From Candidatus Dojkabacteria bacterium (GTDB taxonomy: Bacteria > Patescibacteriota > Dojkabacteria > JAHIVN01), in assembly GCA_016932045.1 (NCBI GenBank), contig JAFGDO010000011.1:5997-69996 (forward strand): a DNA stretch of 64,000 bases, read 5' to 3'. Both the position numbers and the translations under genes were made by a program. The notes beneath the pieces are model-generated. The model ran no database searches. It worked only from the letters and a program-made list of their open reading frames with translations, and was not told the DNA's origin. Below are positions 16,778-24,820 of this stretch, piece after piece; positions within the stretch are counted from its first letter, which is position 1; each line of letters starts with the position of its first letter.

Positions 16778-17748
16778 ATGTTAATTTTTTCTTATATATC
16801 AGAACACTATCTAAATCCTGTGCTCCGGTTTAATTTGTTCAATATGTTAAATAAATTACTGCTTTATATTTGTCTAATTTATTCACCTGAAAGTCTTGGA
16901 TCATGAAGGCTTGAGTAACAGAGTAGGGGAGCAGGGCAAGAAAAATCCGAGACCAACGATTATTATAGGATAAAATACTATAAGATACACAATATTTTTC
17001 GAATTAGGAGGTTAAAAGAATAAGAAGTTCTAGAAGCAAGGAAGATCCAGATGTTCAAGGTATAACTTGCCCCATTATATTCAGCTGTACTATTTCACAA
17101 GAATGTTTCACAATGGATGATACGATTGTGGATAACTGTGTGGTACTAACGAGGGTGGGTTGTAGGTGACTGTGTAAAACTATTGTGATCAACTATAGAT
17201 AAGCACAAGTCGGTAGTTGGAAATAAAGGGGGAAGAAAATAAGGTTGTGTTCTAATTCGTGCATCTACTCCTCTAGTATAAAATAGGTGCCTAAAGTTAC
17301 AAAGTATATGGTGCGTATAATCACCCTTATATGCAGTAACATAGAGTAGAAACGTGGGGTATACATAATTTTGGAAATTTTTACGGCAAATCAATTTGTG
17401 TCATTTCATTATTTTTAAATTTATAGGATATTTTTTATGTTAATCCTTCTCTAATATTTATATGTGTTTCCAGTATACTTTAGTTTAGTTATACCAGGAA
17501 TTGGGCCAATACCCATTTGATGGTTAACGAGTTTTTCGTTCAAGAGAGGGTATTTTGAGAAATTTTAGTGATAAGATTTGTTTCAGCTTGAAAAAGGCAC
17601 TCCCCCATCGACTACCAGTTCACTCTCTCGCCTTTTTTTGGTAAGCTTATACTATGGATATGTATTTACAATAGTTAATAACCAGAGTAGTCAAACCAAA
17701 TAGATTGAAAAGTGCTGTATCTCAAGCCTAAATTAATAAATAGTATAA

Positions 17749-18792
17749 ATGAAGAATAATTTTTTGCCACATATTGAAGACTTTTTACTGGATCTTACAA
17801 ATAATAATTACAGTTTAGAGACAGTTAAAAATTATAAGAGAGACCTTTTTATTTTTTATAGATTCCTGAAGTTACAAAACCTTTCTTTCAAAAAAACAAA
17901 TAAGAAAACAATAACTTTGTATAAGGGATTCTTAAAAAGTAAAAAATACTTAGAGTTTTTAGAAGGAATTGATGATTATGCCCGAGATGACGGCAATATC
18001 TCAAAATCGAGCTCTAAGGGGCCTAGAAGTGACGAAAGTGATAAGAGTAGACTATCAAGTCGTTCAATAAATCGTATGTTGTCATCCCTTCGGTCATATT
18101 TACGCTTTCTTATCGAATTTGATTATAAGACCCCTCTTGCACCTGATGCTATAAAATTGATAAAAACCGAACGGACTATTTCTCAGGTCGCAGAGTTTGT
18201 AGAACTTGTTAAGCTTGTTGAGTTCCCAAGTTCATTTGAAAAGAATAAATTTATTGCCAAAAGAAACCGAGCAATTTTAGAACTATTATTTTCTTCGGGT
18301 ATGAGAATTTCAGAACTTGTTAATTTGAATCTAGAAGATTTAGATCTTACCGAAGATCGGAAAAATATAAGACAGGGAAAAATTTTTATAATGGGAAAAG
18401 GAAAAAAACAACGATTTGTTTACTTGACCGAAAGATCTAAAAAATATTTATCGGAATACTTAAGTCTGCGAGATGATAGTTTCACAGCGCTTTTTATACC
18501 TACGAAAGGGACAAGGTTAAAAATGGAAAACGTTGAGAAAATACGCATATCAGCAAGATATATACAGGCACGTATTGCCTTGTATCGGAGGTATCTAGGT
18601 ATAATTGTGCCTACGACTCCGCATAGTTTACGTCATGGATTTGCTACATATTTAGCCGAACATGGTGCAAGTCCTGCGGCCATTCAGCATTTGCTTGGTC
18701 ACGAGTCACTACAGACAACAACCAGATATGTACACGCTTCAGATAAGTTTGCTGAAGAATCACATAGGAAGTATCACCCTTTGAAGAAGTAA
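17749..18792 (+). CDS. Tyrosine site-specific recombinase, XerC/XerD family, with an insertion in the N-terminal domain
   Basis: The C-terminus HSLRHGFATYLAEHGASPAAIQHLLGHESLQTTTRYVH has the R..HxxR..Y catalytic box. The N-terminal SAM-like core is ETVKNYKRDL...LSSLRSYLRFL. Confidence 0.85.
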   Translation: MKNNFLPHIEDFLLDLTNNNYSLETVKNYKRDLFIFYRFLKLQNLSFKKTNKKTITLYKGFLKSKKYLEFLEGIDDYARDDGNISKSSSKGPRSDESDKSRLSSRSINRMLSSLRSYLRFLIEFDYKTPLAPDAIKLIKTERTISQVAEFVELVKLVEFPSSFEKNKFIAKRNRAILELLFSSGMRISELVNLNLEDLDLTEDRKNIRQGKIFIMGKGKKQRFVYLTERSKKYLSEYLSLRDDSFTALFIPTKGTRLKMENVEKIRISARYIQARIALYRRYLGIIVPTTPHSLRHGFATYLAEHGASPAAIQHLLGHESLQTTTRYVHASDKFAEESHRKYHPLKK

Positions 18793-19045: not shown

Positions 19046-19498
19046 TTATCCTATCTCTTCTATCCTATAGTGGATTTTGCCCTTAGGAGTTTCGACTCTT
19101 ATCTCCTCCCCTACTCTTTTGCCTTGGACAGCTTTCCCAACGGGAGAATTTATAGAGATTTGCCTCTCTTCTTGGGAATATATCTCTTCCACAAGCCGAA
19201 AGCGAACCTCTGTTTTGCTATTTTTGATAAGTATATTATTTCCAGGTTGCGCTTTGTTACCTATTATTGTTTCACCAGTATTTTTGTGATTTTCCGCAAG
19301 CTTTCTTTGTAGTCTTTCCATATATTTTTCGATAACACGTCTTTCCTCGACAAGTTGTTGATAGTCAAGAGCGCCTGATTCACTTGAGTAGTTTCCCCGC
19401 TCATCTTCTAATTGTTTGGTGAGCTGATTATATTTCTCTCTGATGTTGGAAAGTTTTAATTCTAAATCCTTTATTCTTTTATCTGCAGTCTTACTCAT
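19046..19498 (-). CDS. greA: Transcription elongation factor GreA-family protein
   Basis: An N-terminal coiled coil is followed by the C-terminal FKBP-like domain INSPVGKAVQGKRVGEEIRVETPKGKIHYRIEEI. Confidence 0.85.
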   Translation of the reverse strand: MSKTADKRIKDLELKLSNIREKYNQLTKQLEDERGNYSSESGALDYQQLVEERRVIEKYMERLQRKLAENHKNTGETIIGNKAQPGNNILIKNSKTEVRFRLVEEIYSQEERQISINSPVGKAVQGKRVGEEIRVETPKGKIHYRIEEIG

Positions 19499-19679
19499 TT
19501 CAAATACTCCATGTTTATAGAAATTTATAAACTCCTTTTCCTAAACGCAATAGCAAAACAAATATTACAATCTTATATAAACTATATATTTCAAAGGAAT
19601 TGTGTAAGTTTGTATTAAACTCCTAAGCGGATAAATTATAAAAGAGTGTTTTGATATTCTTTTTCTGTTATTTAGAGCA

Positions 19680-20141
19680 TTACATGTATCTTATTTCTTC
19701 GATTCTGTATGGTACCTGTCCTCTTGGTGATTCTACAAGAATTTCCTCACCTAAGCTTCTACCCATGGCAGCTTTACCAATAGGAGAAAGGTTTGACACA
19801 AGTCCATCTGTAGGTCTTGCATCGCAAGCTGATACAATGCAAACTTCTAGGTCATGAGAGTGATTCTTAAGCTTGATGCAGCAGCCTACTTCTACTTTTT
19901 CGAGCGCTTTATCTTTATTTTGTCCCATTCTTTGTTGCAGTTGTATTCTTCTCTTTGTAATTGCTATCTGTTTCGAGATAAATTCTCGTTCAGTCTGTAA
20001 AAAGTACAGACTTTCATTTTCATCTGAGGTCACAAGATCTCTCTCTCGTGAGATTTGTTCAGTAAGTTCCTGATATTTTTCGGCAAGACAGGCTAGGCGT
20101 TCTTCTAAATCTTTTATTTGTAAACATTTTTGAGTATTCAT
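19680..20141 (-). CDS. Second GreA/Gfh-family paralog. Start chosen at the internal ATG MNTQKC; the open frame extends to 20336.
   Basis: The coiled coil IKDLEERLACLAEKYQELTEQ has the tip SDENESLY. The C-terminal domain is LSPIGKAAMGRSLGEEILVESPRGQVPYRIEEI. Confidence 0.65.
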   Translation of the reverse strand: MNTQKCLQIKDLEERLACLAEKYQELTEQISRERDLVTSDENESLYFLQTEREFISKQIAITKRRIQLQQRMGQNKDKALEKVEVGCCIKLKNHSHDLEVCIVSACDARPTDGLVSNLSPIGKAAMGRSLGEEILVESPRGQVPYRIEEIRYM

Positions 20142-20316
20142 ACTAGAAATATAATAAATTAATTCTGAACCCAGTATGAATTTATCAAAGAGAGGAAGCT
20201 GATGCTTGATTTTTATATACTTTATTTCTGACAGGTTGGAAATTCTATATTTAAGAAATGTGCTATTTTGCTGGGGTTTAACGACCTGACGGGAATGTGT
20301 GGTTTCTGACAGAATA

Positions 20317-23283
20317 TTAGGCCTCCTTAATAGCAAATAATCTATTTACCAGTTCTTTTCCCCATGCTTGTGGTGATTGGAAATACTCAAGGGGTTCTCC
20401 TCCTGCATCATCGCTTGCTCTGATCAACATTTCTCTTGATACAATCCCTCTTCTTACTTGAATTTCTATGTGTTCTTCTATTATCCCTTCAACCAATCTG
20501 CCTGCTCTTGCTCCGATTCGAATGAAGCGTACTAGTTCTCCTTCTGTAAGTGGGAGGCTGTATGTTACTGTGGATAAAGCAACTACCATCGCAATGGTTC
20601 TTAGGTCTTTAGCACCACCTAGTTGTCCTGAAATACTTCGAATCTCTTGTAATATTGGCGTTCCTTTCATTAGGTTAGCCTTGATATGGGTTATGTCTCT
20701 TGGCATTATTAGGTCTACTTGTTCTGGAAGCCGATCCAGTTCTTCAACGGTTGTTGGAATTGCAACTTGTGCTTCTACTATGCTATCAAATATTCCATGA
20801 AGCTTTAGTAAATTAATAATTTGTATTCTTGTTTCAAGGGATTGATCGGCTTTGAGTCTCATTGATAGTGTATCTGTAAAAGTTTCCAAGTTTTCAACTC
20901 TTGGTTTTCTCCCTTCAACTCGAGCTAAACCATGATTTTGCGATATGTGCATCGGAGAGTGACCAGATGCGTAAGCAAGGTAGGTTGAGGCGACTATTCG
21001 TGAAAGAGATCTTATTTGTTCAACTTGGGAGGCAGAAAAGGATAGATTTGTACCATGTCTACAAACACTTATGAGTGAGTCAAGTCCCGTTACAGCTGAG
21101 AGTTCAATTACAAAGGTATCTTCAGTATCAAGAAGTTCGGTACGACGAACCTCGGAATCGTCTCTATCTAGTGATTTTGCCGAAGGTCTAAATGCAAAAT
21201 CAACTATATGTGAATGAAAGTCACTTCCAGTTAGTAATCTATTGCCTGCCTTATTATATATTGATCCTCTGATCAGATTTATAACTATGTGCTGAAGCGG
21301 AGGATAAAAACCAATCCCGAAATCATGAGTAAGTCTCTCTAAAGATAAGGCAAAAGCATCCAGTACAGTTTCCCCTTTGATGAACTTAAGTATATTGGGG
21401 TCTGGTCCTATATCAACAACATCTTGTGATTCACCACCTATTGTTACAGCCACAATTAAATTTCCTCTTTCTAGAAGATGGGCTCTTTGTCGAGGCCCCA
21501 AATCATGATAGGCGCAAATGGCACCAATGGAGTCTTGTCTTGGTGATAATTCTAGTCCTAAACCGTATTTTAAGCCCCAATTATATTTGCCATGTTCGTG
21601 GCTGACTATTCTTCTTACAGGGTCGCTAACCATTACTTTTATTTCAAATAAAGCATCAACAGTAAATCCATCGTGTGGAGTTACATGGGGAATACCTGCT
21701 ACAAAATGTACAGCTTCATATCTTGTATCATCTCGCTTGGTTTCAGATGCTTTTAGATACTCATCATTTTGCCTAAAAACCACTAGTCCTAATTGCCTTG
21801 ATAAGAATTCGGCTGTTGGAGTTGCTACCTGCTCTAGAGTGTACCCTTCTTCAAGATCGACATATAAGGTTATACCTGATCCATCTAGTGAGTATCCTTC
21901 AAGGTAACGCTCAAGAAGTTCATCTAATGACGCTTTTCCATTTGCATTTATAGCAGCTCTTCTAATCAATTCTTGGAATTCTGTTAGGGTGATTGGCCTT
22001 CGAGCATCAAAGCCTTCACCTAGGTTTCTATCAGAATTGGCTTTTAGGTATTCATTTAATTCTGCTTTTATTCTTGCATCATATGGACCGACACTTGCTA
22101 CTCCGGGGATTTTAGCTGCTGCATAAAGATCTCTCAATCTAATTGCAGTTCCGTGAAGGAGAATTCTGGCTCTTTGATCTGTGCAGGTCGGTGGGTATCC
22201 ATAAATTCTATAAGCTATACCATTCTGACGCATTTCCATAATGTCTCGGTATGCTCTCCTATCATATGTAAAGAGAGCAAGGGATGTTACCCTATGTTGC
22301 AAGGAGTTCCATTTATGGTATATATCACAAAGTCTATTCCACCAGTATATAGCCCTTTTTGATTCATCATATGCCTCAACAAGGATACGATCATCTTGAG
22401 ATGAAAACTCCTCAAGTGAAATTTTTCCCCACCGAATCATATAGACAACTGTTTCAAGTTGTTTAGGATTTATCCCTCTTGCCATCTCCATAGTTGCAAT
22501 TGAGTCTATTAGTAGTGCTGCCCAAGAAGTGGAATCATTTCCTAAGGCATTAAGACAACGATTGCACTCATGCTGATTGATAACATATGGCTTATGTTGA
22601 CTATATGGATGACGCATATCTAAATCATGTTTTCTTTGTAGCTGTTCAAATCTGGTGGTTTTTTCACCTGAAGATTCATTAATGCCGGAACTATACATTT
22701 TTTGTCGTGTTTCCAAAGCTTCTTGGACATGGATTGATATATGAGAATAGGCAGGAAGTTGTTTGAAAAATGCTGTATTTACAATTACTTGTTGGTCATA
22801 ATCAATAAATGAAGCTCGTATTCCGGAAAGGATCATTGCTGCTATCATGGTTTCTGCTCCTCCTACAAATCCATGCCAAGCTGTTCCATGCATTCCTTTT
22901 CCAGGCAAATCTGTCGGCTCAAGCGGATACGTTTCAAGAAAGATCCTGATAGCCCAAAGCATCTTTAGTTGAACATTTTCCTCTTGTATACTTTCTCCTG
23001 TTGACTCTTTAATGAACGATGGCAGTGTTGTGTATATTGAATGAATCGTATTAACCACTTCTGTTCCAAATACAGTTTCTATCCTTGCAGTGATTGAGTC
23101 TAAAGTGGTTTCCAGGGGTTCAAATGTTGTATGGGGATATTCTCTTTGTACTAATTCCAAAGCTTCTTGGTATGTAAGGAGTAATGGGTGTGATCTTTCA
23201 TATGTTTCACCCTCTAAGACTGCTGATTGTCCTGCTGATTGTTCCGTATTACCTGCTGCAGCAATAAGTTCTCTTAGTTCCAT
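20317..23283 (-). CDS. Large hypothetical protein (988 aa), no family recognised
   Basis: 2.97-kb uninterrupted ORF. GC appears somewhat higher than in the housekeeping genes, from two hand-counted ~64-124-nt samples. No P-loop or other familiar catalytic motifs were seen by eye. Confidence 0.6.
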   Translation of the reverse strand: MELRELIAAAGNTEQSAGQSAVLEGETYERSHPLLLTYQEALELVQREYPHTTFEPLETTLDSITARIETVFGTEVVNTIHSIYTTLPSFIKESTGESIQEENVQLKMLWAIRIFLETYPLEPTDLPGKGMHGTAWHGFVGGAETMIAAMILSGIRASFIDYDQQVIVNTAFFKQLPAYSHISIHVQEALETRQKMYSSGINESSGEKTTRFEQLQRKHDLDMRHPYSQHKPYVINQHECNRCLNALGNDSTSWAALLIDSIATMEMARGINPKQLETVVYMIRWGKISLEEFSSQDDRILVEAYDESKRAIYWWNRLCDIYHKWNSLQHRVTSLALFTYDRRAYRDIMEMRQNGIAYRIYGYPPTCTDQRARILLHGTAIRLRDLYAAAKIPGVASVGPYDARIKAELNEYLKANSDRNLGEGFDARRPITLTEFQELIRRAAINANGKASLDELLERYLEGYSLDGSGITLYVDLEEGYTLEQVATPTAEFLSRQLGLVVFRQNDEYLKASETKRDDTRYEAVHFVAGIPHVTPHDGFTVDALFEIKVMVSDPVRRIVSHEHGKYNWGLKYGLGLELSPRQDSIGAICAYHDLGPRQRAHLLERGNLIVAVTIGGESQDVVDIGPDPNILKFIKGETVLDAFALSLERLTHDFGIGFYPPLQHIVINLIRGSIYNKAGNRLLTGSDFHSHIVDFAFRPSAKSLDRDDSEVRRTELLDTEDTFVIELSAVTGLDSLISVCRHGTNLSFSASQVEQIRSLSRIVASTYLAYASGHSPMHISQNHGLARVEGRKPRVENLETFTDTLSMRLKADQSLETRIQIINLLKLHGIFDSIVEAQVAIPTTVEELDRLPEQVDLIMPRDITHIKANLMKGTPILQEIRSISGQLGGAKDLRTIAMVVALSTVTYSLPLTEGELVRFIRIGARAGRLVEGIIEEHIEIQVRRGIVSREMLIRASDDAGGEPLEYFQSPQAWGKELVNRLFAIKEA

Positions 23284-23440: not shown

Positions 23441-24820
23441 TTAACTGATAAGCCTCAGTCCCCTGCCCTTTATTGTTTCAATAAACCTAGGAGTAGAAGC
23501 TTTGTCCCCAAGCTTTTTTCGGATTCTGGACAATGTTCTGTCAATTGCCCAATCTGAGTATTTCTCAATTGAATTCTGACCCCATAGTATCTCTGCTAGC
23601 GCCTCTCGTGTTACTATCTTTCCCTTGTTCTTGTACAAAAGTTGCAGGATTTTATATTCATTTGTTGTGGGCTCTCTTTTTAGTGGCTTAGCATCAACAT
23701 AAACCGTTTTAGTTTTAGGGTCGATATAAAGTCCTTTTGTTACCGGAATCTCAACAGTTGATTTTTTGCCTGTTTTTGATTTGAGATAAATTTCTAAAAG
23801 TGGAGAAAAAAGTTTTTTTTCGCCATTTTCTTCTTTGATGACGCCGGTATTTTCAAGATATTTTGCTCGGTGATTGATAGGAGTATTAGGATTCTGTACA
23901 AATTCGATCAGAAAATCCTTGTATTCATCAAGTAGCTTTGTCCAAAATTTTTCGCTCCTCGCTAGTGTTGTACTATGAGAAGCTAGTTTTCTTATATCTT
24001 TCTTGTCCAGAATGGAGGCATCTTTGCCACTATCAAAATAAATTCTACTTAAAGCTCTCATATACCCTGGATGTCCTCCTGATATCTCAAATATACTTTG
24101 CTTAATCTTCGAGGTAAACTTAATACCTCTCTCTCTTTCCCATTCCTCAAGACCAAGAAAAGCATCTTCCTTACTTATTGGTTTTAACCAGAATTGTTTA
24201 TTGAGGAAAAGGTCATACAGTTCATCTAGAATTTCAGGTGTTAAGCTTGTAAGTAGATCACGATCGCTACTAAATGCTAATGTGACCTGCCATTTATTTA
24301 TATTTCTAAGTGCCTTTAGTGAATTAAAAAATTGTTTGTCAAAATCAGCAAGAGTGCCGAAATCATCAATAAGGATGCACAGATTAAAGTTTGCTTCTTG
24401 TGTTATGGTCTTTATGATATCCTCAATAGCACTAAAAATTACAAAAAGATCCTGGCCGTTTACAGCATTATCATGAATTTCTTTTATTTGGCTTTGAATC
24501 TTTTCATCCTTGATATTTGCTGCCACAGTCTTTTGGATTCTTGTTAGAAGCAGTCTGTAAAAACCAAGTGGGGAAATATCAAGAAGCTTTGTGAGATCTA
24601 GAAAAACTACGATAAAGTCAATTTTCTCTTTTGGGAATAATTCCTGCCAAAATTCTATATTCTTATCAAATGTCTGAAAAAGATCAGTTTTCCCTATTCC
24701 GGGCATTCCCATAAGTGTAAATGACTCACCTTGCTTGATCTGAGCTAGAATTGCTTTGAGAAGGTCTTTTTTGTATCCCTTTTTAAATCGGACGAAGTTT
24801 TTCTCGTTATGTCCTGACAA
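23441..24820 (-). CDS. P-loop NTPase (AAA_16/STAND-like) fused to a C-terminal OmpR/PhoB-type winged-helix DNA-binding domain
   Basis: Walker A is LMGMPGIGKTDLFQ and Walker B-like is LCILIDDFG. The C-terminus YKILQLLYKNKGKIVTREALAEILWG...IDRTLSRIRKKLGD...IETIKGRGLRL matches the trans_reg_C fold. Confidence 0.7.
   Translation of the reverse strand: MSGHNEKNFVRFKKGYKKDLLKAILAQIKQGESFTLMGMPGIGKTDLFQTFDKNIEFWQELFPKEKIDFIVVFLDLTKLLDISPLGFYRLLLTRIQKTVAANIKDEKIQSQIKEIHDNAVNGQDLFVIFSAIEDIIKTITQEANFNLCILIDDFGTLADFDKQFFNSLKALRNINKWQVTLAFSSDRDLLTSLTPEILDELYDLFLNKQFWLKPISKEDAFLGLEEWERERGIKFTSKIKQSIFEISGGHPGYMRALSRIYFDSGKDASILDKKDIRKLASHSTTLARSEKFWTKLLDEYKDFLIEFVQNPNTPINHRAKYLENTGVIKEENGEKKLFSPLLEIYLKSKTGKKSTVEIPVTKGLYIDPKTKTVYVDAKPLKREPTTNEYKILQLLYKNKGKIVTREALAEILWGQNSIEKYSDWAIDRTLSRIRKKLGDKASTPRFIETIKGRGLRLIS

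Follow-up and report, generated by a model that had tools for sequence, protein, structure and literature searches.

Two adjacent genes in a 64,000-nucleotide stretch of a Candidatus Dojkabacteria genome (assembly GCA_016932045.1, contig JAFGDO010000011.1, positions 5,997 to 69,996; hereafter the window) encode divergent members of the GreA/GreB family of elongation factors, which we call GreU (upstream) and GreD (downstream). Judging from their sequences, it is very probable that they are two paralogs which act within the RNA polymerase (RNAP) secondary channel and which arose from an ancient tandem duplication. A division of labour in this genome, with GreU as the active cleavage factor and GreD as a modulator, is a more tentative proposal whose chances we put a little below even. 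The explanation that blends the two, paralog pair plus active/modulator split, is the best we can offer and is, on balance, probable.

Gre factors are the textbook case of proteins that lend catalytic residues to RNAP via its secondary channel, and the acidic tip residues D41 and E44 are treated as defining. What we report is a lineage-specific variant of this known family that had not been described before: a tandem pair fixed in its lineage, whose S-D-E tip is remodelled and whose Cys pair is conserved. Dojkabacteria is the former candidate division WS6, and a search of the accessible literature found no paper on Gre factors in this group.

Gene pair and predicted fold

The initial annotation, made from the DNA letters and their open reading frames (ORFs), had described two GreA-family genes arranged head-to-tail on the minus strand. 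The ORFs, their Pfam matches and their 34% identity (BLASTP E 9e-22) bear this out at the same coordinates (Table 1). NCBI holds identical sequences for both proteins (P0001 for GreU, P0002 for GreD), each labelled 'GreA/GreB family elongation factor [Candidatus Dojkabacteria bacterium]'. Both match the GreA/GreB C-terminal domain PF01272 (E 4.5e-14 for GreD and 9.4e-15 for GreU), with scores of 52.6 and 54.8 bits that pass the gathering score of 26.9. The C-terminal motif SP[IV]GKA..G...GEEI.VE.P.G...YRIEEI is common to both, much as first described, except that GreD reads PVGKA and not PIGKA. The Ser of its SP[IV]G part is invariant in the family alignments, and in the Mycobacterium tuberculosis Gre factor the equivalent Ser (S127) is needed for activity and, probably, for RNAP binding (PMC3132773).

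Profile comparison and structure prediction alike point to a Gre N-terminal coiled coil in both proteins, contrary to the outcome (such a coiled coil in neither protein) that the initial annotation had named as refuting; the Pfam model of this domain, PF03449, matches neither protein. Using hhalign, the clade profiles of GreU and GreD each aligned with 25 canonical GreAs across some 141 columns that take in the coiled coil (probability 99.9; E 4.7e-31 and 8e-30, respectively), well above what chance would give. AlphaFold2, run with family alignments as input, gave models with a predicted local distance difference test score of 93 for GreU and 81 for GreD. In the GreU model, helix 1 (residues 12-36) and helix 2 (43-74) are joined by a tip loop at 37-42 (VTSDEN); in the GreD model, helix 1 spans residues 2-34, the loop 35-39 (GNYSS) and helix 2 40-74, and in both a beta-rich C-terminal domain follows the hairpin. 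Foldseek matched both models to GreA (9a7t_B), GreB (2p4v) and RNAP-bound Gfh1 (3aoh/3aoi) over 147-162 columns with probability 1.0. The GreU model also matched 1grj (GreA), and matches to Rnk (3bmb) and to a Nitrosomonas short form covered the C-terminal domain only. GreU and GreD are confidently predicted to be Gre-family proteins with an N-terminal coiled-coil hairpin of canonical length.

Coiled-coil tips

The canonical GreA tip against which both proteins were compared reads G-D41-L-S-E44-N-A-E-Y48, and alignment of the tip residues, as the initial annotation had proposed, places the D41/E44 acidic pair in neither GreU nor GreD. The tip strings are RERDLVTSDENESLYF in GreU and ERGNYSSESGALDYQQ in GreD. 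In the hhalign register of GreU, V37 falls in the D41 column, S39 on S43, E41 on E44 and N42 on N45, with D40 as an insertion. In that of GreD, S38 falls in the D41 column, E40 is the insertion and Y46 lies on Y48, while the residue in the E44 column is either G42 or S41.

The GreU clade has the consensus M-I-S-D-E-x-G-N, with an adjacent acidic pair in all 16 core members and an exact SDE in 7/7 paired orthologs and in the deep-branching locus L167. The GreD clade has the consensus S-S-D-E-G-x-[IL]-[DE]-Y and an adjacent acidic pair in 17 of 20 members, with variants that include NDEED, SQEDS, GDDS and TDEL; the GreD of the window (S-S-E-S-G) is one of the three exceptions. L167 retains SDE and TDE tips. 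An enlarged loop (a one-residue insertion), an adjacent D-E pair near positions 43-44 and a non-acidic D41 column appear as robust features of both families in these alignments, in which the family-level tip of both paralogs is the same non-canonical S-[DE]-[DE]-(x)-G.

The earlier claim that only one paralog has an acidic tip therefore holds for this genome, where GreU has three acids and GreD has E40 alone, but not for the two families. Likewise, D40 and E43 of GreU are three residues apart here, as had been pointed out, but this DENE spacing is not conserved: in the orthologs the tip is SDExGN, position +3 being taken by Gly or a different residue, and the D41 column is occupied by V37. The inserted D40 of GreU could stand in for D41.

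A second family feature is a C-x11-C pair ('C..IK.LE.RL.CL') near the N-terminus, present in 7/7 GreU orthologs, 6/7 GreD orthologs and the U-type protein of L167. In the GreD of the window, D6 and N18 replace the two Cys, the sole loss among the paired sets. The two Cys may serve in redox control, metal binding or pairing.

Many other PF01272-type metagenome proteins of about 150 aa also lack the GDLSEN tip (P0029, P0030, P0032, P0035, P0039, P0043-P0045, P0047-P0050, P0052, P0053 and P0060), with sequences such as LAESLLEDLEH, SSNSEESIQY and GSDNGLEDIEF in its place. Non-canonical Gre tips may be more widespread than the Dojkabacteria family, perhaps extending to other lineages of the candidate phyla radiation (CPR).

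Duplication and conservation of the pair

An exhaustive search of 1.84 billion representatives with a hidden Markov model (HMM) returned 2277 matches at E ≤ 1e-3, with a sharp drop in score after about 27 proteins. A profile search of a larger collection showed the same break. Proteins of the close set above it (E ≤ 1e-31) have PF01272 alone, and those with a named source all come from Dojkabacteria or the 'Patescibacteria group'; nearly all proteins below it combine PF01272 with PF03449 and show the GDLSEN signature. When GreU was the sole query, a word-indexed homolog search recovered only GreU itself. In a neighbour-joining tree, from which Gfh1 sequences were absent, the close set divides into two clades, GreU and GreD, which both lie away from the canonical GreAs of CPR bacteria.

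Related loci were gathered with GreD-clade patterns, which miss the allele of the window (SPVGKAVQGK), so the distribution counts are lower bounds. Every Gre-like ORF in the 167 fetched loci was then classified with competing U, D and canonical HMMs. At least 13 of the 167 loci have a U gene directly upstream of a D gene on the same strand, representing 7 distinct pairs, and 147 have a single canonical GreA. Two close-family loci with D only (L087 and L091) are both cut by contig ends, and two others (L150 and L154) have weak matches of 31-35 bits on all three HMMs and are unassignable. The U-D tandem is present in every related Dojkabacteria/Patescibacteria locus with enough sequence. Its setting is also shared: the 7 distinct pairs and L167 have the order gyrB, AIM24, gyrA, a winged helix-turn-helix ATPase, a protein of about 960-1000 aa, U, D, xer, a 270-aa protein, ruvB, ruvA, ruvC and yebC.

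U orthologs are on average 47.9% identical and D orthologs 51.5%, whereas U and D within one genome are 34-41% identical. Since orthologs are more alike than the two copies in a genome, the duplication predates the divergence of these lineages, and the similar conservation of the two sets points to comparable purifying selection, with D not decaying. The canonical GreA HMM scores U above its partner D in 6/7 pairs, which marks U as the conservative copy. GreD is nearest to its own orthologs and next to GreU, with HMM cross-scores of about 200, 120 and 74-91 bits, in agreement with the tree. By these comparisons, GreU and GreD are each other's closest relatives, and GreD is a lineage-internal duplicate. 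D-type C-terminal domains are the more basic in 6/7 pairs; across the same 7 pairs there is no consistent U/D difference in net charge of the N-terminal coiled-coil domain of the kind that would suggest a GreA/GreB-style basic patch.

In L167 (ENA ERZ1757541 contig_9488, 300 kb), gyrA, ruvB, the 988-aa homolog and the U-type Gre gene are each split or truncated into several ORFs. These look like long-read assembly frameshifts rather than pseudogenes.

Proposed roles and alternatives

In the mechanism we propose, the C-terminal domains of GreU and GreD would dock on RNAP via the SP[IV]G motif, and the N-terminal coiled coil of each would reach through the secondary channel. GreU, transcribed from its own conserved promoter-like leader and starting at ATG 20141, would be the transcript-cleavage/anti-backtracking factor, presenting carboxylates to catalytic Mg2+ II. 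It is the likelier cleavage factor because it is the more canonical of the two, its SDE is invariant, its E41 and N42 lie on the E44 and N45 columns and it has the extra E43. The idea that the upstream copy is the more canonical was already implied in the initial annotation, and the canonical HMM scores and the tip register both favour it. GreD would be a non-redundant second factor. With its tip reduced to S-E-S and its Cys pair lost, it is likely to be weak or inactive in cleavage in this genome, and it may occupy the channel as a competitor or modulator.

Several points weigh against this reading. The Pfam model of the Gre N-terminal domain, PF03449, has no match in either protein at E ≤ 0.1. 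On the NCBIfam GreA/GreB models (TIGR01462, TIGR01461, PRK00226 and PRK01885), the two proteins score 49.8-54.2 bits against cutoffs of 139-188; these low scores and the non-canonical tips uphold the earlier suspicion that both paralogs are atypical, although the same equivalog models align end-to-end with both. The D41-equivalent column holds no Asp in either paralog (hhalign), and the register of the GreD tip is ambiguous by one residue, with MAFFT shifted relative to hhalign. In M. tuberculosis Gre, D43N (the D41 equivalent) abolishes cleavage and E46R does not (PMC3132773), so cleavage competence is not assured even for GreU. Acidic tips do not separate activators from inhibitors (PMC4598747). 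Sister lineages have a diacidic GreD, so the tip gives no indication that the D family in general has a modulator role. Finally, our scan covered 64 kb, and the rest of the genome could contain a canonical GreA.

The pair may instead have sub-functionalised in the manner of GreA and GreB, both proteins being cleavage-competent and differing in backtrack length, timing or expression, with the GreD of the window still functional through E40 of its SES tip. This would fit the mostly diacidic tips of both clades, the comparable purifying selection on the two copies and the Tyr that the GreD clade has on Y48. N47 and Y50 of M. tuberculosis Gre are thought to contact backtracked RNA, the latter at the Y48 position, and the tolerance of E46R shows that one of the two acids is dispensable there (PMC3132773). 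However, the coiled coils of U and D lack the consistent net-charge difference expected from the GreA/GreB basic patch, and the GreD of the window has lost one of its two acids and both conserved Cys, so we regard sub-functionalisation as unlikely, if a serious contender.

A clearly less probable alternative is that neither protein cleaves, both being regulators of the Gfh1/Rv3788 type, with a canonical GreA elsewhere in the genome. The non-acidic D41 column of both families, the undetected PF03449, the wide margin by which the NCBIfam equivalog cutoffs are missed and the best PDB sequence matches (Gfh1 or a Gfh1 chimera) would all suit it, as would the acidic tips of the pure inhibitors Gfh1 and Rv3788 (PMC4598747). 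However, the Gfh1 matches cover mostly the C-terminal domain, and in the tree the U and D clades seem to derive from an ancestral GreA. CPR genomes are small, and in some small genomes GreA is the one secondary-channel factor (PMC4598747), so three Gre genes would be surprising; a scan of the 64-kb window found no third Gre gene, and none was present in the fetched flanks of related loci. We give hardly any weight to the idea that GreD is a redundant, decaying duplicate without a function of its own. The loss of a tip acid and both conserved Cys in this genome is what such decay might look like, but every lineage has an intact GreD ORF, conservation among D orthologs is as high as among U orthologs, the RNAP-binding motif of the C-terminal domain does not vary and even the deepest branch has kept the pair.

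The active/modulator reading also has a bolder form, which we consider a rather unlikely conjecture: this CPR lineage would have swapped the universal D-x-x-E for an adjacent Asp-Glu in a loop that has grown longer, and would have no secondary-channel proteins other than an obligate tandem pair, the Cys pair perhaps serving redox or metal control or pairing, and the GreD of the window now a pure channel blocker.

Comparison with known Gre-fold proteins

Canonical GreA (E. coli 1GRJ; PF03449 plus PF01272) resembles both proteins in its length of about 150 aa, its coiled coil and C-terminal globular domain, its SP[IL]G motif, its full-length profile homology (E about 1e-30) and structural matches, and an acid on or near the E44 column. 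It differs in the tip, which is G-D-L-S-E-N in GreA and S-D-E-x-G in the Dojkabacteria pair, where the loop is one residue longer and there is no D41 Asp. The Dojkabacteria family is also a conserved tandem pair, and its C-x11-C near the N-terminus has no obvious counterpart in the canonical sequences seen, which were not checked systematically.

The GreA and GreB of Proteobacteria offer a parallel, with two Gre paralogs per genome, acidic tips at the family level and presumably non-redundant roles. However, both keep the canonical D41/E44 and differ from each other in the size of the basic patch, whereas the Dojkabacteria pair shows no consistent charge difference and comes, according to the tree, from an independent lineage-internal duplication. 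In E. coli, greA and greB do not lie side by side.

Each of Gfh1 (Deinococcus-Thermus) and Rv3788 (M. tuberculosis) accompanies a cleavage factor as a further Gre-fold protein and is a competitor for the secondary channel, as GreD might be. The best PDB sequence match of GreD is indeed Gfh1 (2etn, E 6.8e-6), but the Gfh1 matches are driven mainly by the C-terminal domain, and GreD is closest to GreU and is not a Gfh1 ortholog. Gfh1 has a pH-dependent domain re-orientation and inhibits RNAP, whereas GreD is known from its sequence and predicted fold. The initial annotation had seen a Gfh1-like inhibitor in GreD because of its acid-poor tip, an argument that is weak: Gfh1 and Rv3788 inhibit RNAP yet keep conserved acidic tip residues, which Rv3788 needs for inhibition (PMC4598747), so an acid-poor tip is not a hallmark of such inhibitors.

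Rnk (3BMB) shares a Gre-like C-terminal domain, and accounts for weak NCBIfam matches and for structural matches confined to that domain. Its coiled coil is far shorter and would fail to reach the active centre (PMC4598747), whereas the hairpins of GreU and GreD are full-length, at about 25 + 32 residues. Gre action can be species-specific, as M. tuberculosis Gre failed on E. coli RNAP (PMC3132773).

Start and leader of GreU

The initial annotation chose the Met at 20141 as the start of GreU while noting that the frame stays open for 65 more codons and overlaps the neighbouring 988-aa gene by 20 nt. Both observations are correct: there is no stop back to TTG 20336, which would give a protein of 218 aa. 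The choice of ATG 20141 was also right, as judged from the NCBI model, orthologs of 148-152 aa and the absence of an upstream extension in a related locus (L001). The 218-aa form was ruled out by the same NCBI start and ortholog lengths and by conserved leader blocks inside the extension, whose promoter-like character argues that it is non-coding.

These blocks were found when the leader was inspected for a promoter, as had been suggested at the outset. They are conserved in an alignment of 7 lineages plus L167 and persist between lineages whose proteins are about 45-50% identical; equivalent leaders lie at 9277-9452 in L001, 5252-5451 in L007 and 5318-5483 in L167. The composite motif occurs once in the window, with 0 occurrences expected by chance. 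A scan for promoter and terminator consensus sequences was not above shuffled expectation, and the promoter call is based on cross-lineage conservation instead.

The palindrome core CTGTCAG is 7 bp long, and exact CTGTCAGAA occurs in 2 copies in the leader out of 4 in the 64 kb. TCAAGCA is invariant across eight lineages, and the -10-like block follows TGnTAWAKT. CTGTCAG and TCAAGCA could be an operator/activator site or an unusual -35 region. The E. coli greA gene also has a regulatory leader (GraL). The spacer between GreU and GreD holds a weak promoter-like match (19608-19581) that is not significant alone, and it is shorter in relatives (about 17-100 nt).

Genomic neighbourhood

Upstream of the pair lie gyrB, AIM24 and gyrA, together with an HD protein, an ATPase of STAND-like type that has an OmpR-type winged helix, and the 988-aa orphan. 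Downstream are a tyrosine recombinase of the Xer type, a membrane protein of 270 aa and ruvB/ruvC, with ruvA assigned by position and by the annotation of relatives. Because of the adjoining recombinase, the STAND-like ATPase and the orphan protein, we considered a mobile or defence island. We rejected it: the neighbourhood from gyrB to ruvBAC is syntenic in relatives down to about 25% identity and no tRNA flanks it, the sole tRNA of the window being 15 kb off. In PADLOC, neither the Gre proteins nor the 988-aa protein had a match, and the ATPase had only a weak one, to mad8.

The 988-aa protein has no match in Pfam, NCBIfam, PDB sequences or PADLOC. In every relative whose flank is long enough, a homolog of 962-999 aa lies directly upstream of the Gre pair, and L167 has it as fragments. 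It is a large orphan of this lineage. The 459-aa ATPase has an N-terminal P-loop/STAND-like region (weak AAA_22, AAA_16, nSTAND6 and PADLOC mad8 matches) and a C-terminal OmpR-type winged helix (PF00486, E 1.4e-16), and it is syntenic in relatives. That it might be a regulator, possibly one that binds the CTGTCAG palindrome, is pure speculation.

The recombinase gene converges with the Gre pair, and a gene-poor region of about 970 nt lies ahead of it. This resembles an integration scar, but all relatives share the recombinase and the 270-aa membrane protein in synteny. The recombinase is probably a chromosomal XerC/D-like dimer-resolution enzyme.

Table 1. Positions in the window of the genes and sites discussed in the text.
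Feature	Positions	Strand	Details
Gene-poor region	16778-17748		precedes the recombinase gene
Xer-type tyrosine recombinase	17749-18792	plus	
GreD	19046-19498	minus	downstream Gre paralog; ATG start; 150 aa; derived copy
GreD motif equivalent to the RNAP-binding motif	about 19130-19147	minus	S118-P-V-G-K-A; S118/P119/G121 invariant or nearly so in family
GreD tip	19373-19396	minus	residues 35-42, G-N-Y-S-S-E-S-G; sole acid E40; family consensus S-S-D-E-G
GreU-GreD spacer	19499-19679	minus	181 nt; Shine-Dalgarno-like GGAG at 19507-19510, 8 nt before GreD ATG
GreU	19680-20141	minus	upstream Gre paralog; ATG start; 153 aa; conservative copy
GreU RNAP-binding motif	19772-19789	minus	S119-P-I-G-K-A; S, P and G invariant across family alignments
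GreU tip	20013-20033	minus	residues 37-43, V-T-S-D-E-N-E; acids D40, E41 and E43
GreU C18	20088-20090	minus	second Cys of C-x11-C
GreU C6	about 20124-20126	minus	first Cys of C-x11-C
GreU non-coding leader	20142-20316	minus	175 nt; promoter-like blocks
Extended -10-like block	20179-20187	minus	TGATAAATT; TG(n)TA(A/T)A(T/G)T
Leader block	20203-20210	minus	ATCAAGCA
Leader block, two copies	20226-20234; 20304-20312	minus	CTGTCAGAA
988-aa protein	20317-23283	minus	
459-aa protein	23441-24820	minus	

Significance

The family-level annotation 'GreA/GreB family elongation factor' is adequate for both proteins, and known biology is not overturned. What the pair adds is a whole lineage with two retained Gre paralogs, both with a different tip: an adjacent D-E, a longer loop and no D41. 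An active tip of this kind would be a test of how far the Gre mechanism tolerates altered geometry, and an inactive one would show that this CPR lineage handles backtracking in another way. That genomes so strongly reduced retain two copies is an argument for a second secondary-channel factor that is non-redundant. The GreD of the window, with its degraded tip, offers a natural allele for asking how cleavage factors become inhibitors. Should the conjecture of a swap to adjacent Asp-Glu prove true, the family would be a naturally re-engineered Gre active-site geometry, with the transition from cleavage factor to inhibitor caught in the act.

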